Source: a virus. Taken from it: a stretch of 64,000 nt of DNA. Of this stretch, positions 2,207 to 36,490 are shown piece after piece. The stretch is taken from the IMG/VR virus record IMGVR_UViG_3300040856_003054, positions 64,001 through 128,000 of that record; one strand, 5' to 3'. Within the stretch, counting starts at the first letter, position 1, and every line of letters begins with the position of its first letter. Both the position numbers and the translations under genes were made by a program. The notes beneath the pieces are model-generated. The model saw only the letters and a list, made by a program, of their open reading frames with translations. It made no database searches and was not told the origin of the DNA.

Positions 2207-3066
2207 GATACAATCCAGCAGATTGGGACACCTATTCTTCAAAGCAAAGAAAAGAATGGTATTATAAACCATATGAAGAACAACGAGAGATTATAAACAA
2301 ATCATATCTCTCACTGATTACTGACGAAACTGGTAATCTTGATACTATAAAAATCCTTGAACTCATTATGGATTTACAAGACCGAGTAGAAGACCTTGAA
2401 ATAGAATGTGTGAGGAAGGATTATTATTGATGACTAAACGCAACTTTACGCAAGAACTCTATTATTCCTATTATGAGGATATGGAGGATGGTAGAACAAC
2501 TGAAACGATTGATTATGCTGCTTTGATTGGTATTATCGCAGAGTTGTGTGATAGAATAGAGCAACTTGAAAAAGACAACAACCTCTTAAAATCCTACGCA
2601 TGGGAACAATGACGAAACTATCACTCAAATGGAAACAAATCTTTGATGAAATCTCAACAGCAGATGAACATGTTGTTGGAAAAATCAATTACTATAACCT
2701 TGCTAGTATCTTGGAAGATTTGTATGTAGAAAATGCTGAACTCAAAGAACGAGTAGAAGCACTTGAAAAAGATAAGAACCAATGGTATCATCCAGAGAGT
2801 AGTGTAGCAATAAACAAAACTTACACTGATGGTTTGCTATGACTGAAGAAGACAAGTATGCTCTCAAAGAGTTTCTGCGTGGTGCTGGTGCATTTCTTCT
2901 TGCCTCTGCTGTCTTTCTTGCTTACTTTGCATCTGGTGATAAACCAATCAATGAAGCATCATTTGAAGTGGTTGATAAGTATGATAATCGTTGTAATGTA
3001 ATACGATATACTCCTAATAATTCTGCACGATATGTTTATTTCTTGGATTGTTCATCTAAATACTAA
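2203..3066 (+). CDS. run of four small overlapping hypothetical genes; the last (2839..3066) has an N-terminal TM helix
   Basis: Abutting or ATGA-overlapping ORFs ending at 2430, 2612, 2842 and 3066. Confidence 0.7.
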
Positions 3067-3158
3067 TGCCTTAACTGACCGCAATCTGTAAGGTGGGAGG
3101 AGAGAAATCTCCTCCTTTGTAATATAAATACTAATGCGGTTAGTTTAAGAGTAGAACT
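3057..3158 (+). ncRNA. endonuclease-leader cassette 1: late promoter, putative antisense sRNA, terminator, late promoter
   Basis: TAAATA 3057; cttaactgaccgca 3070-3083 complementary to tgcggttagtttaag 3135-3149; terminator ggaggaga-gaaa-tctcctcc-ttt; TATAAATA 3123. Confidence 0.6.
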
Positions 3159-3854
3159 ATGGTAAATCCATATAGATTTTATACCTATGCTTATTTGCGT
3201 GAGGATGGAACTCCCTATTACATAGGCAAAGGTAAAGAAAATAGAGCATATAAGAAAGTTAAGGGTGAAGTTGGAAAACCAACTGACAAATCAAGAATAA
3301 TTTTTCTCAAACAAAATCTAACTGAAGAAGAAGCATTTAGACATGAAATCTACATGATTGCTGTGTTTGGGAGAATTGATTTGGGAACTGGCATTCTTCG
3401 CAATAAAACTGATGGTGGTGAAGGTTCTACTGGATTAAAAATGTCCGATGAAAGTAAACAAAAGATAAGTAAAATTCATAAAGGTAAAACTCTTTCTGAA
3501 AAACATAAACAAATACTTGAAAAACATAGAGTTAAAAAACATTCCAAACAAACTATAGAAAAACTAAAAAAATCAAAAATAGGAAATAAATGGAATGTTG
3601 GAAGAAAACTTTCAGAAGAACATAAAGAAAAAATAAGAAAATGGAACTTGAATAAAATTGTTAGTGAAGAAACTAAAATAAAAATAAGTCAGTCAAAAAA
3701 AGGAAAACCTCAAAGTGAAAATCAAAAAGAAGCAATTAAAATGTTATGTCAAAAAGTAAGAGGAACAAAATGGTGGAATGATGGGCAAATCAACAAAAGA
3801 AGTGTAGAATGTCCTGGTGATGGTTGGAATTTGGGTAGAGTTAGGTTGTCATAA
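3159..3854 (+). CDS. GIY-YIG-family free-standing homing endonuclease with NUMOD3-like repeats
   Basis: YTYAYLREDGTPYYIGKG..R, E..I...GR, N.TDGGEG; basic SEE.K.KIS repeats. Confidence 0.85.
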   Translation: MVNPYRFYTYAYLREDGTPYYIGKGKENRAYKKVKGEVGKPTDKSRIIFLKQNLTEEEAFRHEIYMIAVFGRIDLGTGILRNKTDGGEGSTGLKMSDESKQKISKIHKGKTLSEKHKQILEKHRVKKHSKQTIEKLKKSKIGNKWNVGRKLSEEHKEKIRKWNLNKIVSEETKIKISQSKKGKPQSENQKEAIKMLCQKVRGTKWWNDGQINKRSVECPGDGWNLGRVRLS

Positions 3855-3912
3855 GGACACTTTACAAACTGGCACGGGGGCACTTGAAAACAGGTGCCTT
3901 TTGTTGTATAAT
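3854..3912 (+). promoter_or_regulatory. palindrome-associated early promoter
   Basis: GACA-N10-TGGCAC, TTGAAA, TATAAT 3907; near-identical to 5744..5802. Confidence 0.8.
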
Positions 3913-4552: not shown

Positions 4553-4810
4553 ATGATTTCTCCTTACAATGTAGTTCCTGGAACTGATATTGTTCATAGC
4601 ATCACTGATTGTTATGAACTCTGTGATGAAGCAGAAGGATGCACTCACACTGTAAAACTTAATGCGGATAATGGTGGTGTTTACTTGGAATCAATAGGAA
4701 AGCAACACGATAGTGAGCACAGAGGTATCACTGAATATATGACTATCTCAAACAAAGAACTTGCTATAGTAGTCGCAAAAAGGATTTTGGAATTGTACAA
4801 CGCAGTATAA
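4553..4810 (+). CDS. hypothetical phage protein
   Basis: 85-aa ORF after promoter element 4472..4529. Confidence 0.7.
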   Translation: MISPYNVVPGTDIVHSITDCYELCDEAEGCTHTVKLNADNGGVYLESIGKQHDSEHRGITEYMTISNKELAIVVAKRILELYNAV

Positions 4811-4922
4811 ATAAAAATGTCTGTTTGGACTGCAATCTCTACGGACAAGATTAGGTGCTCTTTGGGGCACCTTTTCTATTATAAAGTTTTATAAATAATA
4901 ATGCAGTCCAAATAGAATAGAA
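4806..4922 (+). ncRNA. endonuclease-leader cassette 2
   Basis: TATAAATA 4806; stem tgtctgt/acggaca; tctgtttggactgca 4820-4834 complementary to tgcagtccaaataga 4902-4916; terminator aggtgctc-tttg-gggcacct-ttt; TATAAATA 4890. Confidence 0.65.
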
Positions 4923-5744
4923 ATGACTAATCATAGTCCTAGAATTTATGTGTATAAAATCACATTTGAAGAAGTTCCTTATTATTACTATGGAGTCCAT
5001 AAGGAAAATAAGTTTGATGAATACTATATGGGTTCTCCTTATACTCATAAATGGGTTTGGGATTTTTATACACCTAAAAAACAAATACTTCAACTTTTTG
5101 AGTTTAGTGATGAAGGTTGGTCAGAAGCAAACGAAATAGAACAAAGATTGATTAGACCTGTATTCAATACAGATAAATGGTGTCTCAACGAAAATTGTGG
5201 TAGAGTAGTTTCTCTTAATATCTTAAGGGAAAATGGTAAAAAAGTTAGTGAAAAATATTCAAGTATAAATGGTAAAAAGAATGGAAAAAAATCTTATGAA
5301 CTTGGATTAGGAATTCACGGAAGAACCAAGGAGCAAAGAACTGAAGATTGTGGTAAAGGTGGGAAAATAATGGGAGAAAAACATAAAAAAGATGGAACTG
5401 GAATTTTTGCAATTACTTCAGAAGAAAGAACTGAAATCGGTAAAAGAATGGGAAAAATAAATTATGAACTTGGTATTGGTGTTCACGGAAGAACCAAAGA
5501 AAAAATGACCGAAGATGGGAAAAAGGGAGGTAAAATCACAGCAGAAAATCATAAAAGAAATAAAACAGGAATTTTTGGAATAGATGACGAACAAAAAAGA
5601 AAAAATAGTATAAAAGGTGGTAGAAGGACATCCTCTCAAAAATGGATGTGCCTTGAAACTGGTTATGTTAGTAATGCTGGTGGACTTTCTCATTATCAAA
5701 AGAAAAGAAATATAGACACATCTAAAAGAGTTAGAATATCATAA
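4923..5744 (+). CDS. Seg-like GIY-YIG homing endonuclease with internal GIHG/GIFG..GKKGG repeats
   Basis: IYVYKIT..YYYYG.H...Y.GS, E..LI, LNEN; tandem basic repeats in the C-terminal half. Confidence 0.8.
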   Translation: MTNHSPRIYVYKITFEEVPYYYYGVHKENKFDEYYMGSPYTHKWVWDFYTPKKQILQLFEFSDEGWSEANEIEQRLIRPVFNTDKWCLNENCGRVVSLNILRENGKKVSEKYSSINGKKNGKKSYELGLGIHGRTKEQRTEDCGKGGKIMGEKHKKDGTGIFAITSEERTEIGKRMGKINYELGIGVHGRTKEKMTEDGKKGGKITAENHKRNKTGIFGIDDEQKRKNSIKGGRRTSSQKWMCLETGYVSNAGGLSHYQKKRNIDTSKRVRIS

Positions 5745-5802
5745 GGACACTTCTCAAACTGGAACAAGGGCACTTGAACTCAGGTGCCTTTTCTTGTATA
5801 AT
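5744..5802 (+). promoter_or_regulatory. palindrome-associated early promoter
   Basis: GACA-N10-TGGAAC, TTGAAC, TATAAT 5797. Confidence 0.8.
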
Positions 5803-5823
5803 GACTTCATACGCAACAAACTG

Positions 5824-6644
5824 ATGAAGTGTAAAACTTGTAAACACTGGAATGGAAACTCACTAGGTATTGGAACTTGTAGTGGTCTTATTCCACAATT
5901 CAAGATTATTCCACTACCCCCTGTGATTGATAAGAAAGGAAACCCACAGAAGAAGAGCAAATTACTTCAAGTGCGTTCTGGAGTCAGTGGTGTGAATAAT
6001 CCTATGACTCCTGCTGATTTTTATTGTAAAAACTGGAGCAACAAATGAAAATCGAATTCAAAGGACACTCACAAACTGACCGAGAAGTAGAACTCTCTCA
6101 ACAAGAATTACATACTCTTTTTGAGATTATGAGAGAAGAGTTCAAAGAACACATCACCTATGCTAGGTTCCGTAATTGTTATTCTCCAACTGCAACTGAA
6201 AAGTCTATCATAGATTTTTGCAATTCTCATAATGTTGACTGTGAATATGATCGTGATAGGGTAGCATTCTTTACTGCCATCCTCAATAACCTCAAGAATC
6301 CTTATCAATGAACATTACATTTAAGCAGCATATTCTCTTGTTATCAGGGCTTACAGTGTTATATGATAGTGCTGAAAAAGTTGGTAACTCTGAAATGCAA
6401 CACGAAATTCTAGAACTTTCTGAGATTATTCAAGAGTATGCTGAAAGGAGACAAAGAGCAGATGAACGAAGAAAAGAATCCTGATGAGATTGTCGTCAAG
6501 GACATTGATATGATTCACTTTGAGATGATGGATGATGGATTTCTCTGGTGCGGAATTTATCATAAGAATGGTCAAGTTGACCACTTTAATATCACATCAA
6601 AGAAGAATAAACTCTCTACTTTATGGATGCCTGATTGTGGGTAA
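5824..6644 (+). CDS. small hypothetical genes (first has a CxxC..C..C putative Zn motif)
   Basis: ORFs ending at 6048, 6311 and 6644; CKTCKHW...C...FYC. Confidence 0.65.
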
Positions 6645-6704
6645 TAAATACTCTTACGATTAAGAAAAGATATAATGTCTCTTGCTCACATCCCTTGGGT
6701 AGTT

Positions 6705-6718
6705 TATAAATATAAATA
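6705..6718 (+). promoter_or_regulatory. overlapping T4-type late promoters
   Basis: TATAAATA at 6705 and 6711, upstream of the ATG at 6736. Confidence 0.75.
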
Positions 6719-6735
6719 TAAAAAAATATGATCGT

Positions 6736-8517
6736 ATGGGATTAAACATAGGAATTACCAATGATTACTTATTGAATACCCCTAATGTTGCATCGGCAGT
6801 AGAAAAGTATGTTTTATGGGCAAAAGCAAGGCAGGGAGGTTCTCCTGGTCTTAAACCATCATTAGATTTAGACTTTGCAAGAAATAAGAGTCTTATCGAT
6901 AATGTTACTGGGCAGCAGTTGGTGGATTTCACCCGCGCTAGTAGTGGCACGTATGTCGGCAGCGATGGGCTGATTAAGACGGCGGTGACGAATTTGTTGG
7001 TGCGGAGTGAGGAGTTTGACAGTAATTGGGCAATTTTTGGCCTGAGTGTTACGGCAAATCAAGAGACAGCCCCAAGTGGGCTGCTAGCTGCTGATCTTAT
7101 TTCTATTGCTGGTTCCGGCCAAGGAATTTGGCAATTTATCACATGCACCCCTGGATTACAGTACACAGCGTCTGTTTATGTAAAACTCGGTACGCTTTCG
7201 GCTGCAGACTATAAAATCGCCGTGCGTGACGATACTGCCGGAGTGTTTATAGCAGCAGACATAACACCCACTCAAACACCGTCATCGACCGGCTGGACGC
7301 GAATTTCTTATACAGTGACAGCCCCTGCTGGGTGTACGACGCTTCGCTTTTACCCTTTCCGAAATACGACCAATGTTACGGGAACAATCTACCTCTGGGG
7401 CGCCCAACTAGAGCAGTCGTCTACTGTGGGTGAATACGTCCCCACCACCAGCACGATTAACAGTGCTCCACGGTTTGATCACGATCCCACCACGGGCGAG
7501 AGCTTGGGGCTGTTGGTGGAGGAAAGTAGGACGAATTTGTTGCTGCGGAGTGAGGAGTTTGATGATGCTTACTGGACAAAAACTCTTGTCACAATTGCCG
7601 CAAACGATGACACCGCTCCAAACGGGCAGATTTCCGCAGAAAAGATTACGCCGACCGTAGACAATGGTGGACACTTAGTACGCAGAGATGTTTCTGGCTT
7701 AACAGCAAATGCGGTTTACACGCTGTCTTTCTACGCAAAATCAGCGGGCTACTCAAGAGCCGGGCTGATTATAGGCACGACGGATCTTTCAACTCGGGCC
7801 ACGGCTGAGTTCAATCTTAATGCCGCGTCAGTAACTGCTCAATCAGGCCAATTAGCGACTTCGGTGGAAAGCGTTGGAGGCGGTTGGGTAAAGATTTCGC
7901 TGTCTGCTCAGAACATAAATACTACTACCTACAGATGCGAAATTAGGGTTTTGGGCTTAGGTGGCGTGACTGACTCTTATACCGGAGACGGCACATCTGG
8001 CATCTACCTCTGGGGCGCCCAACTAGAAGCCGGCGCCTTCCCCACCAGCTACATCCCCACCGAAGATGCCACGGTGACCCGCAGTGCTGACGTGGCCAGC
8101 GACACCACCAGAGGCGGCAACATCCGCAGCCTGTTCACGCAGTTCCGCAGCCCTGCATCAGGCACCAGGCCGGTGGTTTCGTTGGACGACAACACCGCCA
8201 ACGAGCGCATCGAGATCCTGACCAGCGGCACTGATCCGAAGCTGCTGGTAACGGCCGGCGGCAGCGCTGTGGCTGATCTGGATGCAGGCACCGTTGTGGC
8301 CAATGTGGCTGCCCGTGCTGCGGCTCGCTTCAACACCGACAACTACGCCATCAGTATCAACGGCGGCACGTCGCAGCTCGATACCTCCGGCACGCTGCCC
8401 ACCGTGAACCGCATCAGGATCGGCAGCAATCAAGCTGACAACTACCTGAACGGCACCATCGCACGGATCACCGGCTGGGACGTGGTGCTGCCCAACCTGC
8501 CACCGATTACCCAGTAG
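6736..8517 (+). CDS. virion fibre/decoration-like protein with duplicated carbohydrate-binding (CBM/lectin-like) domains
   Basis: LDLDF..FTRASSGTY..DG, PRFDHDP..G..GLLVEESRTNLL, two WGAQLE..Y.PT repeats, C-terminal LamG-like region; late promoter; high GC. Confidence 0.7.
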   Translation: MGLNIGITNDYLLNTPNVASAVEKYVLWAKARQGGSPGLKPSLDLDFARNKSLIDNVTGQQLVDFTRASSGTYVGSDGLIKTAVTNLLVRSEEFDSNWAIFGLSVTANQETAPSGLLAADLISIAGSGQGIWQFITCTPGLQYTASVYVKLGTLSAADYKIAVRDDTAGVFIAADITPTQTPSSTGWTRISYTVTAPAGCTTLRFYPFRNTTNVTGTIYLWGAQLEQSSTVGEYVPTTSTINSAPRFDHDPTTGESLGLLVEESRTNLLLRSEEFDDAYWTKTLVTIAANDDTAPNGQISAEKITPTVDNGGHLVRRDVSGLTANAVYTLSFYAKSAGYSRAGLIIGTTDLSTRATAEFNLNAASVTAQSGQLATSVESVGGGWVKISLSAQNINTTTYRCEIRVLGLGGVTDSYTGDGTSGIYLWGAQLEAGAFPTSYIPTEDATVTRSADVASDTTRGGNIRSLFTQFRSPASGTRPVVSLDDNTANERIEILTSGTDPKLLVTAGGSAVADLDAGTVVANVAARAAARFNTDNYAISINGGTSQLDTSGTLPTVNRIRIGSNQADNYLNGTIARITGWDVVLPNLPPITQ

Positions 8518-8532
8518 TCGGCAACACTAATC

Positions 8533-8682
8533 ATGACTGAAGAACTCCTACCCATCGTTGCTGCAGAAATCGGGAATGGCATTGCTTGTGACCGACCAGA
8601 CAAAGAAACTGCCAGACGAGTTTTAGCCCATGTAGAAACGTGGCTGGCTGCTCAAACCACTACCCCTACCTCTCATGACTGA
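8533..8682 (+). CDS. 49-aa hypothetical protein (not in ORF track)
   Basis: MTEELLPIVAAEIGNG...; same 5' end (catgactgaagaact) as the gene at 8675. Confidence 0.45.
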   Translation: MTEELLPIVAAEIGNGIACDRPDKETARRVLAHVETWLAAQTTTPTSHD

Positions 8683-8983
8683 AGAACTGCTCACACCCCC
8701 CACCCCCACGATGTTCCGCTTCCCAAATGCTGCTGTTGGCATGGCTGCGCTTGATGATGCTGGGCTACTTGATGACGACTTGAATCCCATCACCGCTAGT
8801 CATAACCACGCCCTAGATGTAATCGGCACCATCTCCCGTGGTGGTGAATGGGACGATGAAGGTAATGTCATCACTTCGCCTGAGGTGCTGGAGGGCTTTC
8901 ATTTGAACTACCAAGGACCGCTGCCGGATGGGTGGGACGCTTATGCGGTGTGGCCGGAGCAGCCGGTGAGGGCGTGGGCGTGA
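8675..8983 (+). CDS. small companion protein of the fibre-like gene
   Basis: ALDVIGTI...GEWD..G...P..L.GFH.N...P..P.R.W; GC-rich like the upstream gene. Confidence 0.7.
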   Translation: MTEELLTPPTPTMFRFPNAAVGMAALDDAGLLDDDLNPITASHNHALDVIGTISRGGEWDDEGNVITSPEVLEGFHLNYQGPLPDGWDAYAVWPEQPVRAWA

Positions 8984-9035
8984 AACTGTCACACACAATA
9001 CACCATAAACCACAAAGACCTGCTATAATATCATT

Positions 9036-9493
9036 ATGAAATACCTGAACTCTAAATGGGAAATGATTGTGTGGGGATTTGAACTATTCCAGAATGCAAT
9101 CTATTTTCGGTTGACATTAGAGGATAACATTGATAGATTATCCTTCTTTGAAGAACTCTCTGCTGGGTATATTGAAATGACTGATGAGTATCTAATGTCT
9201 CAACCCGACTTTGACCCATATAATCTATCGGGTAGAGATTCTTATTATTCTTATGTGATGAGTCAAAAGTGATGGACTTTCCAGTGTTCTTAAATAAATG
9301 GATAATCTCCAATAAGTTTCTTAAGTATACTCCATTCTGGTGGTGGTACAGGTTAATATCTCATCAAGGTTTTCGCTTTGATGATTATTATGTGTGGAAG
9401 GAGTTTTGGATGTCCTTAAATCAAGGATATATGGATATGAACTATAAATGGGAGTTTGAACAATATTGGAGTGTAAAACCTAAACATAAATAA
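9036..9493 (+). CDS. two small aromatic-rich hypothetical genes (9036..9272, 9269..9493)
   Basis: Overlapping ORFs after promoter with TATAAT at 9024. Confidence 0.65.
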
Positions 9494-9590
9494 TGATGTC
9501 TGTTTGGACGGCAATCTCTACAGACAAAGATTAGGTGCTTTCGGGCACCTTTTCTATTATAAATAATAATGCCGTCCAAATAGAATAAAG
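9486..9590 (+). ncRNA. endonuclease-leader cassette 3
   Basis: ATAAATA 9486; stem tgtctgt/acagaca; tctgtttggacggca 9499-9513 complementary to tgccgtccaaataga 9570-9584; terminator aggtgct-ttcg-ggcacct-ttt; TATAAATA 9558. Confidence 0.65.
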
Positions 9591-10226
9591 ATGAACTATC
9601 TAAAGATTTATTGTAATCTTATCAGGAAAGCAGAGAATAGAACTCCACCTGAAGGTTATACGGAAAAACACCACATATTTCCTAAAAGTATTTTTGGAGA
9701 TAATGATAGAGTTGTAATATTAAGTGGAAGAGAGCATTATATTGCTCACGCATTATTAGAAAAAGCATTTATAAAAAGGTATGGTGGAAATCACAAAAAA
9801 ACTAAAAAGATGTCTTTTGCTTTTTGGTGTATGAATAACCAAAAATCAAAAAATACTTATTTAAATTCTTATTTTTATGAAAGTTCCCGAATGAGAGTTA
9901 GTGGGGAAAATAATATAGCAAAAGACCCAATTATTCGTAAAAAAATAAGTGAGAAAAAACGAGGAAAAAATCATCATCAATATGGAAAACCACATTCCCA
10001 GGAAACTAAAAATAAGATAAGTAAAAAGAGGAGTGGAAAAAATAATCATATGTCTAAACATTGGAAAATTACATTTTCCAATGGAAATGAAATTGTATTG
10101 TGTGGATTATATAAATGGTCCAGGGAAAATGGATATTGTGCTACTCATATTATTGGAGTTTGTCGTGGAAAAAGAAACTATCATAAAGATATTGTGTCAG
10201 TTGAAGAACTGGCACAAATTTCTTGA
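9591..10226 (+). CDS. HNH (MobE-like) homing endonuclease with NUMOD3 and C-terminal HTH-like domain
   Basis: MNY.K.Y..LI..A, EKHHIFPKS..G, L..REHYIAH.LL; YGKPHSQETK.KIS. Confidence 0.85.
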   Translation: MNYLKIYCNLIRKAENRTPPEGYTEKHHIFPKSIFGDNDRVVILSGREHYIAHALLEKAFIKRYGGNHKKTKKMSFAFWCMNNQKSKNTYLNSYFYESSRMRVSGENNIAKDPIIRKKISEKKRGKNHHQYGKPHSQETKNKISKKRSGKNNHMSKHWKITFSNGNEIVLCGLYKWSRENGYCATHIIGVCRGKRNYHKDIVSVEELAQIS

Positions 10227-10275: not shown

Positions 10276-13200
10276 ATGAAAAATTTTCTGCTCACATTAT
10301 GGTATTTTCCATCACATTTATGGTATAATTATAAATCTTGGAGATATGAGCAAAAATGTATAAAATACTTTGGAGCGAAACCTGAAAAGATTCTTCTACC
10401 AAAAGAACAATTCGATGCTCTTGTAGAACGATTAAATCAACCATCAGACCCTAAAGTAGTTGAAAGATTAAAAGAGATTATGTCTAAAAAGGCTCCGTGG
10501 GAATAATGAAAGAATACTTTGAAAAACTAAAAAAGAGAGCAGGAGTTATTATTCTGTTCGGCCAAATGTGTATTATCATCTATCAACTTGGCACATTAGA
10601 ATCAAAGAAGGTTACTATCTGTCAACCTGATACTTACCAGCAACGGATTATTTGTGTAGAGCAGTGAACGATAAATCTAAAATCTTCTACAATGTCTGGT
10701 GCAATGCGTACCAAAGACGAACCATATATAAAGGAACCGACAGAGAACACAGAGAGCACGAAACTGTGCGAATGTGTCTTGATATGAAAGATGTAAAGTT
10801 CTACCAATTTGATAGTGAGAGACCCAGATATGTTTAGTAAGCCTCTTCTTGGAACCAATACAAAGAAAACTAAACTTTCTTGGATTGAGTATATCTGGAA
10901 CTCGTGTATTATTCAGGGGTGGTATAATTGCTGGTATTCCTTTAAGAACTGGGCCGATTTGATGGGCGATAATTACCAAGAATACGCTTTATTAGTATCT
11001 GATGACCCATTGGAGCAATGTATCTTATATTTCTGGGATAGTTTGGAAGATGAGATTTATCCAAAACACTTTTTGGATAGTTTACTTCAAATGGTAGACG
11101 ATATTGAAACTGGCAAAGAAAAAGTATATCCACTTGATGAAGATTTCTTTGATAGAATGAAAGAACTTACTGATGGTATTGCTGTAAACCTTAACGAAAA
11201 GTTGGAGGAAGAGTGAAGTGGGACTTTATGATGAGATTCGTTCTTCTTATGATTTGGGAGAACAATTCACAAATGTAGAAATGCAAACCAAAGGTCTTGC
11301 GTGTGCAATGACTCGTTATTGGATTTCTCCTGATGGTTATTTGTATGAATTGACTTATAGAGAAACTCACGACTTTGCAGAAATTGGTGAAGATGATGAA
11401 AGGTACGATCCTAAAAAGTTATTTTTGAATTTTGAGTGGATTCCAACAGGAAAGAATGGTAAAGTTGAACCGTGTTATGTGACTGATTATGTTGAGGTTT
11501 ATCCTGCAACTTGGAATCAATCTTGGGAATCTTGGCCCCGACTAAAATTACACTTCAAACTGGGAAAACTACAAGATTATGAAAACATCACAGGACAACG
11601 TTGAACTATTCCCTTATGAGTCGTTCGGTGTAAGATTAGAACACATAAACGAAAAAAGAATCTGTTGGTTCAAGGACGATTATGAGTTGCAAAAATACCT
11701 AGAAAGGTATAAACTGGATAAGAGAACTATTAAACTTGATTATCGTGATGGAGAACCCACTAAACCCAGTCAAAAACGTAAGAGAAGTGTGGAGCAAAAA
11801 CCTGAACCAAAGAGTAAAGGAAGTTCAGGTACAAGTAAAGGACGAACCACCCGCATGGATCCCACTCGCAACACTACTGGCACTACAAAACGCAAGAAAA
11901 AATGACGGAGCAAACTAAACTCATTCTTGCTCTAATGCAGATTGATAATCTTACAAATCTTTTGGAAGGTAATCAATATCAAAAATTTTTATACAGCAAA
12001 TTAATTTCTACGCGAATTGAACTACAGAGGCAATTGAGTCATTATGGAAAGACAGTGGTATGATGATAAAGCATTTTATGTGGAGGGAAAGAAGTATGGA
12101 TTATGGGATTCATATGATAAAGATGGCAAATGTATTATTACCTCACTAACCGAAGAAGAGTGTGTTAAAGCTACGCGATTTATGTTGAAACTCAAACAAG
12201 AGAATAAACTAAATGAAGTAGGGAACACCTATTCTGGCACCGTAGATGGAAAACTTTAGAGCAGGAAACAATGTAAAATTCATTGGTTGTTCAAAGGAAC
12301 AGATTGCTTGGGGTAATAATGATGACCCCACAGGTATTTTGATTGTGGGTGACAAGTATTATGTGGAAAAGGTAGAAGTTCACTCACAACACACAAAGTT
12401 GACATTGCGAGGAATATGCGGTAGATTCAATAGTGTATGTTTTGAAAAAGTATGACAGTAAGAACTTTCGTTGATAAGAATGGAAATGAGTGGAGTTGGG
12501 AAGAAACTCCAGAAGTCCTTGAAGCACTGAAGAATCTCCATGAAATTAAGAATGACACAAAAACAACAGATGTGGGCTAATATCTTCCAGTGTGCTATTC
12601 AAAGGTCTGATATTTACTTCAAAGAAAAAGATCTAGATCGACACGCAAGAGAACACACAACAGTCACATTAGCACTTCAAAAAGGTGAACAATTTTGGAA
12701 AGAACTACTGTAGAATATCCATACCACGTTCTTGATGAAACAACTCCTTGGAATTCGTGGTTGGAATATTCTGAAATATGTCATCAACTTAATGTTCCTG
12801 GACAACCATCTCTGGGACGTTTTATGTCATTTAGACGTTATTTGAAATCTGCTGGACTATTATAATGATTAAAAGATTTGTCAAATGGTTTATCACACCA
12901 TCAAAAAAACCTATCGTTGAAGATATTGATTTGTATGCTAAAATTGTAGAACTGGAGAATCGTATTGCTAATCTAGAAGAAGAAAACATTGAGACAAATA
13001 ATGTGCTCTATGAACTTGGAAACTCTATTGATGCTGTTGATGTCCGTATAGATATTCTATCACTTGAGACATTTACTAAAAATGTATGAAAATCTATCAC
13101 AGTATGAACGAGCACTCGCAAGGTTTGGTGATAAAGTGGGCCTCATTGCAGGACTTGAAATCGCGGATAAGATCTCACCAGAAGATGCTTATCAACAAAT

Positions 13201-22546: not shown

Positions 22547-24367
22547 ATGGAAACTATGGAATTGAACGAAACCAACTATTGCGATCAGCAACCTGTCACA
22601 GTGGAGTTTACTTTTGAAGAACATGATCTTCTCAATGACATTCTGTGTCATGCTTCTGATGGAATGTATGTAGCATGTCCAAATTATCATGAACTTCCAG
22701 AAGATTCTGAATTTGTGCAACGATTCAAGATGCTTGAACAACTCAGGCATAAATCTAATCAACTTTGGGCACAACGATTTGGTAACTGATTCATGAAAAC
22801 TTCTACTGCTCTTGGTGTTGCTTTTGGTGTACTTGTTCTTGCTGTTGCAGGACTATTTTTCCAAGCATGGATACTTGGAATTATTCTTTCTTGGTTTAGT
22901 GTCTCGTTGACATTCTGGCAAAACTTTCTTATTATTCTTCTTGCCAATATGATTACTTACAACTCTGGAGGTTCTTCTAAGTGAATCGTAAATATGTCGC
23001 ATCATTTGTATTAGGTTTTCTTGCTATTATTGGATGGAATGTGTTTCTAATCCAACGCGATGAGCGACTTTATGATTCATACTATCGCGCAAAAGCGATA
23101 GAGAATCTTCAGAAACCTCCATCTGCAGAGATTCGGTGATTTACTTTCTTCTCATCTCTGCAGCATTTGGATGGTGCTTTACTGTCCTATTCTCAAAACA
23201 CTTCAACTATCTGGACGAGAACAATGATTCCCAAAAGCATCCGTGACCTTATCAAAAAAGCAGAAATGGACAAAGTAGCAGAAGAGTTTTGGAAAGAGAT
23301 TGAGGCAGAAGCAGCGGCAAGAGAAGTAACCGTAGAATACTATTTGGCCGAGTTCTATTAACTTGACAAGCAACACTTTTAATTCTAAACTTGAGAGGTA
23401 ATTTACACAAACAAATGGCACAAAAGTTCTTGTATATCGTCGATCACTTTTGCAACTTTCCCCGTTCAGAATATGGTGGAATTTGGAATGTTATTGCAGA
23501 AGATGACGATGAATGTTTCGATTTGATTAAAGATTATGATGATGGTTTCAACGAAGAATATTATGTAAATCTTCGTGAAAAAGTAGTCAATGCAAGAACT
23601 TATGCTCTTGCTGAAGATGTAGAATCCACTATTGTTGAAAGTTTCACCACCTGATTATGACACAAAATGTTGCCCACTCGAACAAAATGTTGGTTGATTT
23701 GAAAGAACAATACCAAGCACAAATCAGTCGCCTTCAGAATAAAATCAGTGAGCAAGAGCAGGAAATCTTGAAACTTAAAACACTGATTTCTCTTCTATCT
23801 GTTGAAAGAGAATATGACGTGTGAAGTTCCTCCTCTACCCTATTCCCCCCCAGAGGGGTATTTTTATGAAGCAGAAGAGTTCAAGAGGAATGTTGTTAGT
23901 ATCTGGTTATGTAATACTCACAAGTTTGTCTATAATGGTGGTGTTCAAACCAGAACTATTCACTCTTTTTACAACACCAAAACCAGAGAATACTTTGCCC
24001 CAATCAATAGTAAGACCATTGGTGCTTGTGTAAATATCAAGGAAACGCGGAATTACTCTGCGATGCCGATTAAATATATCGGATTGGAGCAGTTCTTTGT
24101 ATGACAGAATACATTCCAAAAATCAATGATTATGTTGTATGGACAAAAGGTGTTGAAGGTTGGATTTATTTTGTGGATGAAGAATACATCACCATTGAGT
24201 ATATTGTTCGCCCAAAAAATAAAGTAAACTATCGCGCTTGTCCTATTCATGCAAATGAAAGATTGCTTGTGGTTTGTTATAAGGAACAATGGAACGAATT
24301 AGAATACATCAAGTCCCGTCAATCAATCTATGAAGAAGAGGAAAACTGCTTGGCGATTGTAAGTTAG
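22547..24367 (+). CDS. cluster of small hypothetical genes (incl. TM protein 22793..22984, 23415..23654, 23814..24104, 24101..24367)
   Basis: Contiguous + strand ORFs. Confidence 0.65.
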
Positions 24368-24371
24368 TATT

Positions 24372-24450
24372 GTGGGCAGCAACATTGCGGGGGCGTAAGG
24401 TTGTGTAAGTCCCACTTTTATGGTATAAATAATAATACCCCCGCAAAAGA
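24372..24450 (+). ncRNA. endonuclease-leader cassette 4 (variant architecture)
   Basis: gtggg/cccac-tttt stem enclosing ttgcggggg 24385-24393, complementary to cccccgcaa 24438-24446; TATAAATA 24424. Confidence 0.5.
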
Positions 24451-25227
24451 ATGATGAACTATCTAAAAGTTTATTGTAACCTCATCAGGAAAGCAGAGAA
24501 TAGAACTCCACCTGAAGGTTATACGGAAAAACATCATATATTTCCAAAGAGCATTTATGGAAATAACAATAGAGTTGTAATTTTCACTGCAAGAGAGCAC
24601 TATATTGCTCACGCATTATTGGAAAAAGTTTGTATCCAAAGGTATGGATTGAAAGATAAAAGAACTATAAAAATGATTTATGCCCATAGTGGAATGAAAG
24701 GTAATAATGGTTATATCAATTCCACTTTATATGAAGGTGCAAGAAAAAGAAGAAGTGATAATATGAAAGGAAAACCTTTGTATATTCCAACTGAAAAGCA
24801 TAAAGAAGAAATCAGACAAAGAAGATTGGGAACCAAAGCATCCGAAGAAACAAAAAGAAAAATGAGCGAATCGCATAGAGGTAAAAAATGTCCTCCAAGA
24901 AGTGAAGAATGGAAAAAAAGGGTGGGTGAGAGAATGAAAAAATATGTTGGAGAAAAAAATCCTTTTTATGGAAAAAAACATACAGAAGAAACTAAAAGAA
25001 AGATAAGTGATTCGAAAAAAGGTAAAAAGTATGATAAGAAAATAATAAAAAAATCAAAATACTTATGCAAAGTTAAAAATTCCAAAGGAGAAGTATTTTC
25101 TACCACAAATTTAAAAAATTTTTGTAGAGAAAATAATCTAAACCCCAGTTGCATGTATAGAATAATATCTGGCAAACAAATTCAACATAAAGGATGGGAA
25201 ATTGTTGAAAGAATTAAAATAGAATGA
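24451..25227 (+). CDS. HNH (MobE-like) homing endonuclease with NUMOD3 repeats
   Basis: N-terminus nearly identical to 9591..10226; SEETKRKMSE, NPFYGKKHTEETKRKIS; C-terminal HTH-like. Confidence 0.85.
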   Translation: MMNYLKVYCNLIRKAENRTPPEGYTEKHHIFPKSIYGNNNRVVIFTAREHYIAHALLEKVCIQRYGLKDKRTIKMIYAHSGMKGNNGYINSTLYEGARKRRSDNMKGKPLYIPTEKHKEEIRQRRLGTKASEETKRKMSESHRGKKCPPRSEEWKKRVGERMKKYVGEKNPFYGKKHTEETKRKISDSKKGKKYDKKIIKKSKYLCKVKNSKGEVFSTTNLKNFCRENNLNPSCMYRIISGKQIQHKGWEIVERIKIE

Positions 25228-26447: not shown

Positions 26448-27140
26448 ATGGTCAAAAATCCATATAGATTTTATACCTATGCCTATTTGCGTGAGGATAG
26501 AACTCCTTATTACATAGGTAAGGGTAGTGGAAGAAGAATATATGATAAAAATGGAAGACCTTGTGGTAAACCGAAAGATAAATCCAGAATTATTTTCTTA
26601 AAGCAAAATCTAACCGAAGAAGAAGCATTCAAACACGAAATCTATATGATTTCTGTGTTTGGTAGAAAAGATTTGGGGACAGGTATTCTTCATAATAAAA
26701 CCGATGGAGGTGATGGAGTTTCTGGGGTAATAGTTAGTGAAGAAACAAGAGAAAAATTAAGAAAATCATCTACAAAATATAATAATGAAGGTCAAAGAAA
26801 ATTGGCAAACAAAAAAACTCATAAAAATTATTATCTAAAGAATAAAGAAAAAATATCACGATACTATAAAGAAAAATATAAGAAAATGAGTTCTGATTTG
26901 GAATGGATGGAGAATCAAAGATTAAAACAAAGAATACCTAAAGAAAATCAAAAAACAAATAGATTGTGGAAAACTTGGAAAATAACTTTCAGTGATGGTA
27001 GAATATTGGAAATGACTGGATTATATAATTGGTGTAAAAATAATGGATATAGTGATGGGTTAGTTTATCAGGTAGCAAAAGGCACCAGAAATAAACATAA
27101 AGATATTGTGTCAGTAGAACAACTGACCACTTACTCTTGA
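26448..27140 (+). CDS. GIY-YIG-family homing endonuclease
   Basis: N-terminus near-identical to 3159..3854; C-terminal domain like that of 9591..10226. Confidence 0.85.
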   Translation: MVKNPYRFYTYAYLREDRTPYYIGKGSGRRIYDKNGRPCGKPKDKSRIIFLKQNLTEEEAFKHEIYMISVFGRKDLGTGILHNKTDGGDGVSGVIVSEETREKLRKSSTKYNNEGQRKLANKKTHKNYYLKNKEKISRYYKEKYKKMSSDLEWMENQRLKQRIPKENQKTNRLWKTWKITFSDGRILEMTGLYNWCKNNGYSDGLVYQVAKGTRNKHKDIVSVEQLTTYS

Positions 27141-35000: not shown

Positions 35001-35630
35001 TTTTGTTCAGTATGCTTGCAAAGTTCTAAAGATTCAGATTCATCGACCAGTCAAAGGTTTGTTGTGTGTAGAAGATCAGTATGCTCAAGTTCTTGAGTAT
35101 TTGTATCTGAATTATAGCAATCCTTCTGGACGTAATGATGCACAAGCAATTCTAAATGTGTTTTCTATTCAATGATCAAATCTCTTCTGAATCTGATACC
35201 AGTCAAACACGGATCTTATACTCAAGAAGGTAATCAGATTCGTCGAACATTCTCATTTGGTTATAGTTACATTATCACCACATGTAAGACATCAAAAGAA
35301 GCACAACGTATCGTAAATCAATTCAATTTGTTATGACTAAAACAAGTTTCTATCAAGGTCAATCGTATTCTAAGTTTGATGCCTATTATGAAGAGGAAGA
35401 TTGTGAGCACGATGATTATATGAGTGCAGAAGATTACGAACGTCGTGAATACTATCGGACTCATGATTGAAACTGATTTCTTTATTCTGAATGGTGAACA
35501 GTATCAAGAGTATTATACTGAAGCAACAAAGGTAGGTGTTACTCTTGATTACTATTTGATGGAGTTTACGGATACTGAAGGACCAGATGTTGTATATGAT
35601 GGAGAGAATTGGGTTGAGATTAGTGAATAA
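29022..35630 (+). CDS. dense array of very small early hypothetical genes in promoter-delimited units
   Basis: Many 45-160 aa + strand ORFs, mostly acidic, separated by palindrome-promoter elements. Confidence 0.65.
30240..30716 (+). CDS. membrane protein
   Basis: Hydrophobic Gly-rich TM segments after a small soluble domain. Confidence 0.7.
   Translation: MATWRAKCWLGSSSGYQELEVQSNTTYGAKEQFKRIYGAEQIINLREVRGESTSGSGIGDVGGTVGLIGLVALCWAFVSFTPWILMGLGGAFGTWVGEQVTGQSIEEYNERDDGLGNKRASVVVALALILGGIGFVKGDEIKKGFDADSVPAEVKKTK
31367..31435 (+). promoter_or_regulatory. palindrome promoter, AAATGAGCACAG subtype
   Basis: GTGACA-N10-TGTCAC, AAATGAGCACAG, TG-TATTAT, AAAGAGTCAAA. Confidence 0.75.
31449..31802 (+). 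CDS. conserved phage hypothetical protein
   Basis: G.KY.K........S.HAF.DK.TG.VYKPAS.KAPAKG.RYN...W.G.YLY pattern. Confidence 0.8.
   Translation: MTTAFADFVAQQDAKNTIQLNIVKYCLMLCDALGHDAPDGYHYSLDSSGRKYHKVFMHIGDRRDSIHAFIDKQTGSVYKPASVKAPAKGQRYNVLSIESREQMFERCDWSGSYLYAR
34141..34297. ncRNA. candidate structured non-coding RNA (three consecutive hairpins)
   Basis: 18-bp stem 34141-34158/34192-34209 with two G-U pairs; tgcga/tcgca hairpin; stem 34252-34264/34285-34297; no ORF. Confidence 0.45.
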
Positions 35631-35725
35631 ATAGTGATGCTTAAATGAGTCGCATCTTTAAGTAGAGAGGGGGCAGAAATGCTCCTTTTCTTGTATAAAT
35701 AATACTGCGACTCTTTAAGACAAGA
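35627..35725 (+). ncRNA. endonuclease-leader cassette 6
   Basis: ATAAATA 35627; stem tgcttaaa/tttaagta; cttaaatgagtcgca 35640-35654 complementary to tgcgactctttaag 35706-35719; terminator ggggca-gaaa-tgctcc-tttt; TATAAATA 35694. Confidence 0.6.
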
Positions 35726-36490
35726 ATGAATAACAAGTATTACACTTACGCCTATTTGCGTGAAGATGGAACTCCCTATTATATTGGAAAAGGAGAAGGG
35801 AATCGTGCATATAAAAAGCAACATAATTGCCCTGTTCCAAAAGATAGAAATCGCATCATCTTTCTTAAACAAAATCTTTGTGAAGAAGAAGCACTTAGAC
35901 ACGAAACTTATCTAATAGCAGTTCTTGGTAGGAAAGATTTAGGAACTGGAATCTTACGCAATTTGACTGATGGTGGAGAAGGTGTGAGTGGAGTTGTTTG
36001 GACTGAAGAAAGGAGAAAAAGTTTTAGTGAATATAAAAAGAAAAATCCATCTATTATGTCTGATGAATATATTGAAAGATTGAGAAGAAGGATGAAAAAC
36101 TTCAGTCACACTGATGAAGCAAAGGATAAAATAAGCAGAGCAAATAGTGGTAGAAAATGGGATGAAGATAGTAGGAAAAGAGGAAGTATTGCACAAAAAG
36201 AAAGATATAAAAAAGGCAACAATTCTCTTGCTAATCTCACTCCAGAAAAGAGAAAGGAAATTGTGCAAAAGTCAAATGAAACTAATAAGAAAAATGGAAC
36301 AGGCGCCTGGGGTTTAAGTGAAGAAGAAAGAAGAGAAAGAGCAAAGAAAAACTATCACAAAACTCTTGGAGTTGTTAATTCTACAATGTGGAAATGTTTA
36401 GTAACTGGAAAGATTACAAATGCAGGAGCATTGACAGGTTATCAGAAAGCAAGAGGAATTGATATTTCATTAAGAGAGAAAATTGTATAA
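35726..36490 (+). CDS. GIY-YIG-family homing endonuclease
   Basis: YYTYAYLREDGTPYYIGKG.G.RAY, N.TDGGEG; C-terminal WKCL.TG...NAG.L..YQK.R.ID domain shared with 4923..5744. Confidence 0.85.
   Translation: MNNKYYTYAYLREDGTPYYIGKGEGNRAYKKQHNCPVPKDRNRIIFLKQNLCEEEALRHETYLIAVLGRKDLGTGILRNLTDGGEGVSGVVWTEERRKSFSEYKKKNPSIMSDEYIERLRRRMKNFSHTDEAKDKISRANSGRKWDEDSRKRGSIAQKERYKKGNNSLANLTPEKRKEIVQKSNETNKKNGTGAWGLSEEERRERAKKNYHKTLGVVNSTMWKCLVTGKITNAGALTGYQKARGIDISLREKIV

Follow-up and report, generated by a model that had tools for sequence, protein, structure and literature searches.

The free-standing homing-endonuclease genes of a T4-like cyanophage are each preceded by a copy of one movable control module of about 100 bases, an elaborated form of the scheme known from phage T4 that most likely holds back translation of the nuclease until late infection. 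Its parts follow one another as a late-promoter-like box, a small hairpin holding a variable arm in its loop, an intrinsic terminator, a TATAAATA late promoter, an arm complementary to the first and the ATG of the nuclease gene. Ten such cassettes with the same order of parts, each directly before a homing-endonuclease gene, occur on the 136-kb contig that contains the window (the whole 64,000-nucleotide stretch analysed here), and a covariance-model search of the 136 kb returned only those ten at E below 1e-6. The contig also encodes T4-type baseplate and neck proteins. Six cassettes of the same family are present in Synechococcus phage S-SRM01, and 133 were found among the 98 IMG/VR loci searched, gathered by non-coding patterns only. 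In this collection, 111 of the 133 cassettes precede a gene of one of the contig's four nuclease classes, 12 precede genes classed as 'other', and for the 10 remaining the gene is truncated or its length does not allow a class to be given. Nine of the 12 'other' genes were scanned, with Pfam matches to GIY-YIG in five and HNH in two, a sub-threshold match to PD-(D/E)XK in one and no match in one; the remaining three are close copies or relatives of the scanned nine. As a separate observation, metatranscriptome contigs break at the cassette repeat and yielded no transcript ends.

Two cassettes on the plus strand, which carries all features given below, illustrate this anatomy. Cassette 2 (4818-4922) precedes the ORF at 4923-5744, and cassette 3 (9497-9590) precedes the ORF at 9591-10226. 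The upstream box is TATAAATA in cassette 2 (4806-4813), overlapping the stop codon (4808-4810) of the gene at 4553-4810, and CATAAATA in cassette 3 (9485-9492), where the gene at 9269-9493 ends with its stop codon at 9491-9493. Hairpin 1 follows at 4818-4847 and 9497-9526, its stem pairing TGTCTGT (4818-4824) with ACGGACA (4841-4847) in the former and 9497-9503 with 9520-9526 in the latter. The variable 5' arm, a 15-nt TCTGTTTGGACTGCA at 4820-4834 in cassette 2 and TCTGTTTGGACGGCA at 9499-9513 in cassette 3, sits in the loop of this small hairpin in both, so that the term 'loop/leader duplex' of the preliminary description is an accurate one. Next comes a terminator-like hairpin with a T run (4853-4877, hairpin 4853-4872; 9533-9555, hairpin 9533-9550), a feature called in all three cassettes scanned, and then the TATAAATA late promoter (4890-4897; 9558-9565), whose predicted +1 is G4903 by the T4 numbering rule in cassette 2 and G9571 in cassette 3. 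The leader carries the 3' arm, TGCAGTCCAAATAGA at 4902-4916, which complements 4820-4834 and ends 6 nt before the ATG, and TGCCGTCCAAATAGA at 9570-9584. The two cassettes are nearly identical, as originally described and at the positions originally given, with a mean column identity of 87% over a 150-column alignment that includes the flanks; two long motifs shared by them occur exactly twice each in the window, against none expected from 100 shuffles. Three further cassettes of the window lie before GIYa genes: 3058-3161 (gene 3159-3854), of the same family and identical to a copy at contig positions 51856-51959, 26342-26450 (gene 26448-27140) and 35629-35728 (gene 35726-36490). A divergent one at 24362-24456, with arms TTGCGGGGG and CCCCCGCAA, precedes the HNH gene at 24451-25227.

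Cassettes 2 and 3 stand before genes of unrelated nucleases, given in the preliminary description as GIY-YIG and HNH. The ORF at 9591-10226 (211 aa) is an HNH-type homing-endonuclease gene with NUMOD3 motifs, matching phrog_655 'homing endonuclease' (5e-34), phrog_12434 'HNH endonuclease' (6e-13) and NUMOD3 (6e-12), with no match to Pfam HNH itself. The homing-endonuclease-like gene at 4923-5744 (273 aa, class 'GIYc') is probably a divergent GIY-YIG member, an identification that draws on a modest structural model and weak fold matches; the sequence had no Pfam, PHROG or PDB-sequence match. Among its relatives, two of 20 gave a sub-threshold Pfam GIY-YIG match (best E 0.033), and comparison of its profile with canonical GIY-YIG neighbours gave a probability of 0.1%. 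The AF2 model (pLDDT 69.4) has the order strand-strand-helix-strand-helix; Foldseek returned nothing for it at E below 0.001, and the VIA-align scores all fall below the tool-advised Z of 8, with the PD-T4-3 nuclease best at Z 5.9, the I-TevI catalytic domain at Z 5.7 (rmsd 3.1, 69 aligned) and HIGLE, Slx1, UvrC and T4 EndoII at Z 3.5-4.0. The C-terminus of the protein is common to other HEGs of the contig. The HNH genes at 9591-10226 and 24451-25227, previously called nearly identical, in fact encode proteins with 55% identity over 162 aligned residues, similarity reaching about 85% only in the first 60 residues. Their cassettes do differ in type: that at 24362-24456 scores 48.8 bits against 79-99 for the other nine.

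The proposal that the cassette is independent of nuclease family agrees with the wider comparison. The arm TGGACGG precedes four nuclease classes (GIYa 6, HNH 7, GIYb 2, GIYc 2), and similar cassettes often stand before different classes, as in 13 of the 38 cassette pairs at least 95% identical and 44 of the 67 pairs that are 90-95% identical, the latter compared with 72% expected for random pairs. Two contig cassettes are 100% identical through the ATG plus 32 nt, after which their coding sequences are about 80% identical by eye. Since the similarity of cassettes hardly depends on nuclease class, cassettes or nuclease domains have been swapped. Being self-contained, the module may be moved by recombination among nuclease families, or nuclease domains may be exchanged behind it.

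The cassette-nuclease units behave as free-standing insertions that are polymorphic for presence at a precise site, and are predicted to be mobile by homing. The segment at 4811-6044, which comprises cassette 2, its nuclease gene, a 3' module and a small Cys-rich ORF, corresponds to an empty site in all 12 full-length relatives of the gene at 4553-4810, where the homologue of the gene at 6045-6311 starts a few bases after the stop; no cassette was present in the 13 loci compared at this site. Likewise, none of 45 relatives has a cassette directly after the homologue of the gene at 9269-9493, and in most of them the two genes flanking the cassette 3 insertion (9269-9493 and 10276-10506) are one ORF. 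The 3' module at 5766-5802 and its twin at 3876-3912, each located after a nuclease gene, consist of a terminator-like hairpin overlapped by a TTGAAC-17-TATAAT sigma-70-like promoter, with the -35 element in the hairpin loop and TATAAT following. No sigma-70-like site is listed inside the 5' cassette, which has the late box; such sites lie in the 3' modules, at 3884-3912 and 5774-5802.

In cassettes 2 and 3 the arms form 15 contiguous pairs each, one G-U included, and the arms differ between the two solely at T4831/G9510 and A4905/C9573. Because these bases are pairing partners (T4831 with A4905, G9510 with C9573), the change between U-A and G-C is compensatory, so that T against G in the upstream arm goes with A against C in the leader, as first noticed; for this pair of cassettes alone, such compensation would arise by chance in about 1 in 45 cases (an estimate from 1/15 for the position and 1/3 for the base). 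The long stem is formed in the RNA folds of both (z = -7.1 and -7.5 versus shuffles) and in five of the six window cassettes (z -4.8 to -7.5), while for 24362-24456 it is absent from the minimum-energy fold and present in the centroid only (z -0.13). The ten cassettes of the contig, aligned by MAFFT without fitting to the structure, have 86.2% of cells paired versus 71.8% in shuffles and double changes at 16 of 25 pairs, values reached by none of 500 shuffles. In the IMG/VR set (133 cassettes, 119 of them distinct in the covariation alignment, which was fitted to the model), 92.9% of cells are paired against 76.4%, and the inner arm helix shows double changes at all seven of its pairs. Among 21 relatives of the same arm type, 17 have G:C and four have U:A at the variable position; as none is uncompensated, frequent uncompensated mismatches are not what the homologues show. 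Together, these three comparisons uphold the suggestion in the preliminary description that the pairing is under selection.

The cassette probably functions as a portable RNA lock that acts in cis on the free-standing homing-endonuclease genes of T4-like cyanophages, following the T4/Aeh1 scheme with a nested terminator added. Under this proposal, transcripts arriving from upstream genes would meet the intrinsic terminator and mostly stop there, and in those that read through, the upstream and leader arms would pair into a stem of about 15-20 bp. This stem would come within 6-9 nt of the AUG and block the region where ribosomes bind. Its loop contains the gp55-type late promoter TATAAATA, from which late transcription is predicted to begin at the first bases of the 3' arm; late transcripts would therefore lack the 5' arm and be translatable. 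Termination, masking and the nested late promoter would thus restrict nuclease synthesis to late infection and to the gene's own promoter, and the arms could drift by compensated changes because only their complementarity would matter. The main box lies between the arms in all ten contig cassettes and is TATAAATA in 125 of 129 distinct cassettes, one scan having required that motif; the start is predicted as the sixth base after it, following T4 numbering (PMC2988020). In a thermodynamic model, the mean unpaired probability of positions -20 to -1 is 0.16-0.38 in read-through RNA and 0.48-0.97 in late-start RNA, being lower for read-through in ten of ten cassettes. The 3' arm spans about -7 to -21, leaving the start codon and the 6-9 nt in front of it uncovered, and a clear Shine-Dalgarno sequence is missing from cassettes 2 and 3; the masking would therefore consist in occupancy of -7 to -21 and not of a classic ribosome-binding site. 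This limited reach of the 3' arm speaks against the cis-acting lock, and so does the lack of the long stem in the minimum-energy fold of 24362-24456. An efficient nested terminator would also leave hardly any read-through RNA in need of a mask, the proposal assigns no role to the conserved hairpin 1 or to the fixed-spacing upstream NATAAATA box, and no gp55 gene was identified on the contig, which is incomplete.

Other explanations have to be weighed against this one. It is extremely improbable that the compensatory difference between cassettes 2 and 3 is a coincidence, or the hitch-hiking of two linked variants with no selection on pairing. The 21 relatives of this arm type are not independent, and their G:C and U:A forms could be two lineages derived from one double event; nevertheless, complementarity is kept across about 40 different inner-arm sequences, 98.4% of cells are paired in the inner helix of the 133 IMG/VR cassettes as opposed to 39-59% in slid controls for the whole structure, and the pairing result also holds on the unfitted ten-cassette alignment. 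It has also been considered that the cassette is chiefly a DNA-level recombination module resembling the promoter-early stem-loop (PeSL) cassettes of T4-type phages, with its parts providing homology for shuffling and its complementarity incidental or serving a cruciform. PeSLs are described in PMC2839356 and PMC4122927 as mobile promoter/stem-loop cassettes that mediate shuffling, and such a function would suit both the uncoupling of cassette identity from nuclease class and the 100%-identical tract between two loci, which is limited to the cassette and 32 nt of coding sequence. This explanation is improbable, however, as it leaves the complementarity across so many arm sequences unexplained, PeSLs have early sigma-70 promoters rather than a late box, and the cassette stands only before nuclease genes and not before genes of hyperplastic regions generally. 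Furthermore, G-U cells outnumber A-C cells in the outer stem by 118 to 23 on the sense strand, and this 5:1 excess indicates that RNA, not DNA, is the paired molecule.

A further possibility, on balance unlikely although less so than the two preceding ones, is that the upstream box is a second late promoter that, with the terminator, yields an RNA of about 55-60 nt comprising hairpin 1 and the terminator hairpin. Just as tentatively, the loop of hairpin 1 might pair with the late nuclease mRNA at its 5' end, damping the translation or stability of that mRNA in a cassette-specific manner; termination of upstream mRNAs could release the same 3' fragment, and such an action may coexist with the cis-acting lock. 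A terminator-like hairpin is indeed present, and the arrangement of a seed in a loop, a terminator and a U tail resembles known antisense RNAs. The upstream box is NATAAATA, the late motif of cyanomyoviruses (PMC2984593), in 90 of 129 distinct cassettes (TATAAATA 27, AATAAATA 33, GATAAATA 20, CATAAATA 10), and an A at -13 is a natural variant of the T4 late promoter, whose box spans -13 to -6 (PMC2988020). The spacing from this box to the arm is fixed and equals that of the main promoter. Moreover, when the 5' half is folded, a local stem encloses the variable arm in 112 of 114 cases, the stem run of hairpin 1 averages 6.24 versus 5.15 (sd 0.09) with permuted partners, and its bottom pair covaries (G:C 30, A:U 9, G-U 5 and A-C 0 in 44 distinct cassettes). 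Against this, the box is NCTAAATA, which is not the reported late motif, in 36 of the 129; it also overlaps stop codons of upstream genes, and in cassette 2 part of the box comes from resident sequence where the insertion joins it. The 136-kb contig holds no extra arm targets, an arm is shared in one of 52 within-locus pairs versus 5.1% between loci, a difference that is not significant, and a role in co-transcriptional folding or in termination might be enough to explain hairpin 1. Should each cassette nonetheless be a two-gene RNA unit, an idea with a low likelihood, the variable loop of the small RNA would be a private antisense key to the adjacent nuclease mRNA. It would act as a dose-limiting 'leash' on each selfish nuclease, with loop and leader co-evolving as a specificity pair while the cassette spreads. 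T4-like phages would then possess a class of trans-acting regulatory RNAs borne on mobile elements, and with it a new regulatory layer.

Homing endonucleases are selfish and may damage the genome that carries them, and to our knowledge the control that prevents such harm has been worked out for no more than a few genes of T4 and Aeh1. Here, a single homologous movable RNA module would serve many nuclease genes of several catalytic families on at least about 100 environmental phage contigs, and its covariation is clean enough to serve as a natural mutagenesis experiment. The module is absent from Rfam (the whole window gave no matches at the gathering score, and positions 4700-5000 gave none with E up to 1), and the annotation of cyanophage genomes would benefit from a covariance model for it. 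It also marks nuclease insertions, gene splits and exchange points, and its terminator, late promoter and mask may offer phage engineering a compact part for late-only expression.

Loop-presenting antisense RNAs, such as those of plasmid copy control and toxin-antitoxin systems, hold their recognition sequence in a hairpin loop that is followed by a terminator hairpin. The putative small RNA would resemble them in having its specificity set by a short variable sequence, but it would lie on the same strand as its target and in tandem with it, not opposite. The PeSLs of T4-type phages are short conserved promoter and stem-loop modules between genes that mark exchange points, as the cassette does, and the 3' modules at 3876-3912 and 5766-5802 have the appearance of a PeSL. 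The 5' cassette differs from PeSLs in its late box, in its long-range complementary arms and in being tied exclusively to nuclease genes. Neither cyanophages nor late promoters turned up in a term search of PMC4122927.

The closest counterparts are the promoter-in-hairpin controls of I-TevI, I-TevII, I-TevIII, segB and Aeh1 mobE, as outlined in the review PMC2988022. In them too, a late TATAAATA box lies within a stable hairpin whose 3' half is in the endonuclease leader. Their late transcripts are too short for the hairpin to form, as is predicted for the cassette, and expression is confined to late infection in a scheme that covers GIY-YIG and HNH genes alike. Unlike the hairpins in that outline, the cyanophage cassette, which is known here from sequence and modelling, also holds an intrinsic terminator, a second hairpin displaying the arm and an upstream late-promoter-like box; its 3' arm leaves 6-9 nt free in front of the AUG and covers no consensus Shine-Dalgarno sequence; and one homologous mobile cassette serves many genes (ten here) instead of an unrelated hairpin for each gene. 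Hairpins were likewise reported in 15 of 16 endonuclease 5' UTRs at ocean metagenome loci by Dassa et al. 2009 (PMC2677866), ten of them holding TATAAATA, together with two conserved, mutually complementary motifs. The portions of that report on 'fractured genes' considered here mention neither a nested terminator nor a twin box, nor any analysis of covariation, and no inteins are involved at the cassette loci. The two systems share hairpins upstream of free-standing GIY-YIG and other endonucleases, and both include genes split by an endonuclease, represented here by 9269-9493 and 10276-10506.

Cassettes 2 (4818-4922) and 3 (9497-9590) are modules of about 100 nt, each placed directly ahead of a homing-endonuclease gene, and both lie where the preliminary description located them. 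An AT-rich upstream box, TATAAATA at 4806-4813 in cassette 2 and CATAAATA at 9485-9492 in cassette 3, overlaps the stop of the gene upstream. It is followed by hairpin 1, a 7-bp stem that carries a variable sequence (the 5' arm) in its loop (4818-4847; 9497-9526), and by a GC hairpin and T run, called by the terminator scan (4853-4872; 9533-9550). An inner box, TATAAATA (4890-4897; 9558-9565), then precedes the complementary leader arm, or 3' arm (4902-4916; 9570-9584), and the ATG of the nuclease gene (4923; 9591). The 15-nt arms pair contiguously in both cassettes, one G-U included, and the long stem is recovered by RNA folding (z = -7.1 and -7.5). At 4880-4889, cassette 2 has 10 nt more than cassette 3, a partial promoter duplication (ttataaagtt before tataaata); this longer form also occurs in several IMG/VR copies, with model matches of 115-120 nt.

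The difference between the two loops had been described as compensated in the leader, and this is confirmed: T4831 and A4905 in cassette 2, and G9510 and C9573 in cassette 3, are partners and the sole differences between the arms. Relatives of the same arm type were fetched with a pattern that specified only the upstream arm, its variable base being free; all 21 of 21 are matched, with G:C in 17, U:A in 4 and no uncompensated pair. Because these 21 cassettes are related copies, whose split between G:C and U:A may be one event, the weight of the argument rests on the family-wide data.

A scan of the whole 136-kb cyanophage contig identifies ten cassettes with the same layout, all on the plus strand and each with a homing-endonuclease-like gene directly 3' of it. 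Their arm sequences vary in almost all copies while complementarity is kept: in an unfitted MAFFT alignment of the ten, 86.2% of cells are paired versus 71.8% after shuffling, with double changes at 16 of 25 pairs, and none of 500 shuffles reaches the observed values. A covariance model built from these cassettes finds only the ten input copies in the contig at E < 1e-6, six strong copies in the freshwater Synechococcus phage S-SRM01 (Kyanoviridae), and 133 copies (119 distinct) in 98 IMG/VR loci retrieved by two non-coding patterns. When the 133 copies are aligned by fitting to the model, 92.9% of cells in the whole structure are paired, versus 76.4% shuffled and 39-59% slid; the inner arm helix is 98.4% paired, with double changes at 7 of 7 pairs. 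The outer stem contains 118 G-U against 23 A-C cells, G-U being somewhat favoured by the fitting, and this excess places the pairing in sense-strand RNA. The cassette has zero family matches in Rfam, no description of it in freshwater cyanophages was found in the open-access literature, and hairpins and late promoters are not mentioned in the S-SRM01 genome paper, as judged by a term search.

The nuclease genes of the contig, classed by N-terminus (the GIYa signature being PYRFYTYAYL..YYIGKG), comprise five GIYa, two GIYb, one GIYc (ORF 4923-5744) and two HNH genes (9591-10226 and 24451-25227). The HNH genes, previously called nearly identical, share 55% identity over 162 residues and about 85% within the first 60. 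Behind the 133 IMG/VR cassettes, 111 downstream ORFs belong to the same four classes (46 GIYa, 24 HNH, 24 GIYc and 17 GIYb); 12 are classed as other, and the last 10 are truncated or too short for classification. Comparison of nine of the 12 others with Pfam gives five GIY-YIG, two HNH, one sub-threshold PD-(D/E)XK and one without any match, and the remaining three are close copies or relatives of those nine. The sole ORF without a Pfam match among the nine, of 155 aa (MAHKDAETRREYQRRW...), follows a cassette of the type represented by the divergent copy at 24362-24456 in one IMG/VR locus (L026:4836-4929, minus strand).

Arm type TGGACGG is found ahead of all four nuclease classes. Among 101 distinct classed cassettes, pairs at least 95% identical differ in nuclease class in 13 of 38 cases and pairs 90-95% identical in 44 of 67, against a random expectation of 72%. 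This mixing of classes at high cassette identity supports the proposal that the cassette moves independently of nuclease family, an independence that could arise from movement of the cassettes or from swapping of nuclease domains behind them; both fit the data. Cassette 3058-3161 is 100% identical to the one at contig 51856-51959 from TGCC to 32 nt past the ATG; beyond this point the coding sequences of the two loci are ~80% identical (by eye), and the upstream flanks are unrelated. This pattern resembles a conversion tract with the cassette at its centre. By eye, the C-terminus of HNH protein 9591 is common to GIYa proteins, and that of GIYc to GIYb and GIYa proteins, so that C-terminal DNA-binding modules also appear to be shuffled among the contig nucleases. 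At contig ~29300-29400 (L002:9301-9397), a cassette and its GIYb gene directly follow a tRNA-like T-arm/3' end (ggttcgaatcc; by eye), an arrangement that recalls T4 segB within its tRNA cluster.

ORF 9591-10226 matches homing-endonuclease PHROGs, HNH PHROGs and NUMOD3. ORF 4923-5744, which had been designated a GIY-YIG gene, has no sequence-family match. A model of the N-terminal 110 residues of GIYc, built from a 20-sequence alignment, reaches a pLDDT of 69.4 with the order strand-strand-helix-strand-helix; Foldseek returned nothing significant for it, and profile comparison was uninformative. In a fold search independent of Foldseek, a nuclease of phage defence ranks first at Z 5.9, followed by the catalytic domain of I-TevI at Z 5.7, and four further GIY-YIG proteins score Z 3.5-4.0. 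The ORF probably encodes a putative, divergent GIY-YIG protein. With two corrections, the interpretation in the preliminary description is supported.

Comparison with relatives shows that the unit carrying cassette 2, spanning 4811-6044, is an insertion, since all 12 full-length homologues of gene 4553-4810 are followed, a few bases past the stop, by a homologue of gene 6045-6311 and the 13 loci compared are free of the cassette. The unit consists of cassette 2, the nuclease gene, a 3' hairpin overlapped by a sigma-70-like promoter (5766-5802) and a small Cys-rich ORF. This ORF (5824-6048) has a sub-threshold match to Pfam HPIP_like (25.9 bits, cut-off 28.1), and its stop codon and the start codon of gene 6045-6311 overlap as ATGA. 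The conserved 3' modules at 3876-3912 and 5766-5802, each located behind a nuclease gene and resembling PeSL cassettes, feature a terminator-like hairpin with TTGAA(A/C) in its loop, followed by TATAAT, and their sigma-70-like promoters score 11 and 10 of 12 matches, respectively. Related 3' modules lie behind nuclease genes at contig 54014 and 61638.

The unit of cassette 3 and its HNH gene is likewise an insertion. In most of 45 IMG/VR relatives, 9269-9493 and 10276-10506 make up one uninterrupted reading frame of ~113 residues; in the window this frame is interrupted by the unit, and the downstream piece has a novel N-terminus (MKNFLL...) in which the split point is partly duplicated. In three loci (L172, L173 and L205) the gene is split with no nuclease between the halves. 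The two pieces can be described as a 'fractured gene' with no inteins. T4-type baseplate and neck genes are present among the window ORFs according to a PHROG scan, which provided little context for ten other window ORFs. A CBM_4_9 domain is present in the tail-fibre-like ORF at 6736-8517 (on to ~8990); GC content is 0.50-0.64 between 7000 and 9000, versus ~0.35 in flanking DNA, and this rise suggests that the region from 6736 to ~8990 is a recently acquired receptor-binding segment. A 4026-aa ORF is located at 43784-55861 on the plus strand, and a 2508-aa ORF from 57473 extends beyond the window end.

The cassette probably controls its nuclease gene in cis. The stable hairpin in read-through RNA would hide the ribosome site of the nuclease gene, and the late promoter inside the hairpin would yield a shorter transcript with this site open; the nested terminator would be the first barrier, and the 3' terminator/early-promoter module, we infer, would restart transcription for the genes downstream. 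The T4 late box is positioned at -13 to -6 (PMC2988020), which predicts the G opening the 3' arm as +1, and this G is found in nine of the ten contig cassettes. With the predicted start, the modelled unpaired value of positions -20 to -1 is 0.48-0.97 for late RNA versus 0.16-0.38 for read-through RNA, and the latter is lower in 10 of 10 cassettes. The late sigma factor gp55 was not found in 50 kb of S-SRM01 annotation.

Control in cis leaves the upstream box and hairpin 1 without explanation. Together with the terminator, these elements might specify a putative late RNA of ~55-60 nt acting in trans, with a loop matching the nuclease mRNA at its 5' end; we regard this reading, the main rival, as unlikely. 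Of 129 distinct cassettes, 126 have (A/C)TAAATA as the upstream box and 90 have NATAAATA, the cyanomyovirus late motif as reported (PMC2984593), and the spacing of this box to the arm equals that of the main promoter. Hairpin 1 is conserved: when the 5' half is folded, the 5' arm sits within a local stem in 112 of 114 cases, the mean stem run of hairpin 1 is 6.24 versus 5.15 ± 0.09 for permuted partners, and its bottom pair is G:C in 30, A:U in 9, G-U in 5 and A-C in 0 cases. However, arms that differ among the cassettes of one genome (orthogonality) receive no significant support, an arm being shared by 1 of 52 pairs within loci versus 435 of 8594 between loci in a sampling biased by the seed patterns, and the contig offers no arm targets beyond the cognate leaders and a few one-mismatch 11-12-mers resembling chance.

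Metatranscriptome contigs from four runs cover the upstream gene to 4805-4854 and do not cover the nuclease ORF. These contigs end inside the repeated cassette, and their loose ends run into other cassette contexts; the breaks are therefore assembly breaks at a repeat and carry no information on transcription, termination or expression.

The layout underlying the proposed control in cis matches that reported for I-TevI, I-TevII, I-TevIII, segB and Aeh1 mobE, in which early/middle transcripts have their ribosome site buried in a stable hairpin and a late promoter nested in that hairpin produces a shorter RNA with the site open (PMC2988022). Dassa et al. also report similar hairpins, many with TATAAATA and with two conserved, mutually complementary motifs, ahead of endonucleases in metagenome loci from the ocean (PMC2677866). 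The cassette is an elaborated, strikingly modular and new variant of this known nuclease-control scheme.
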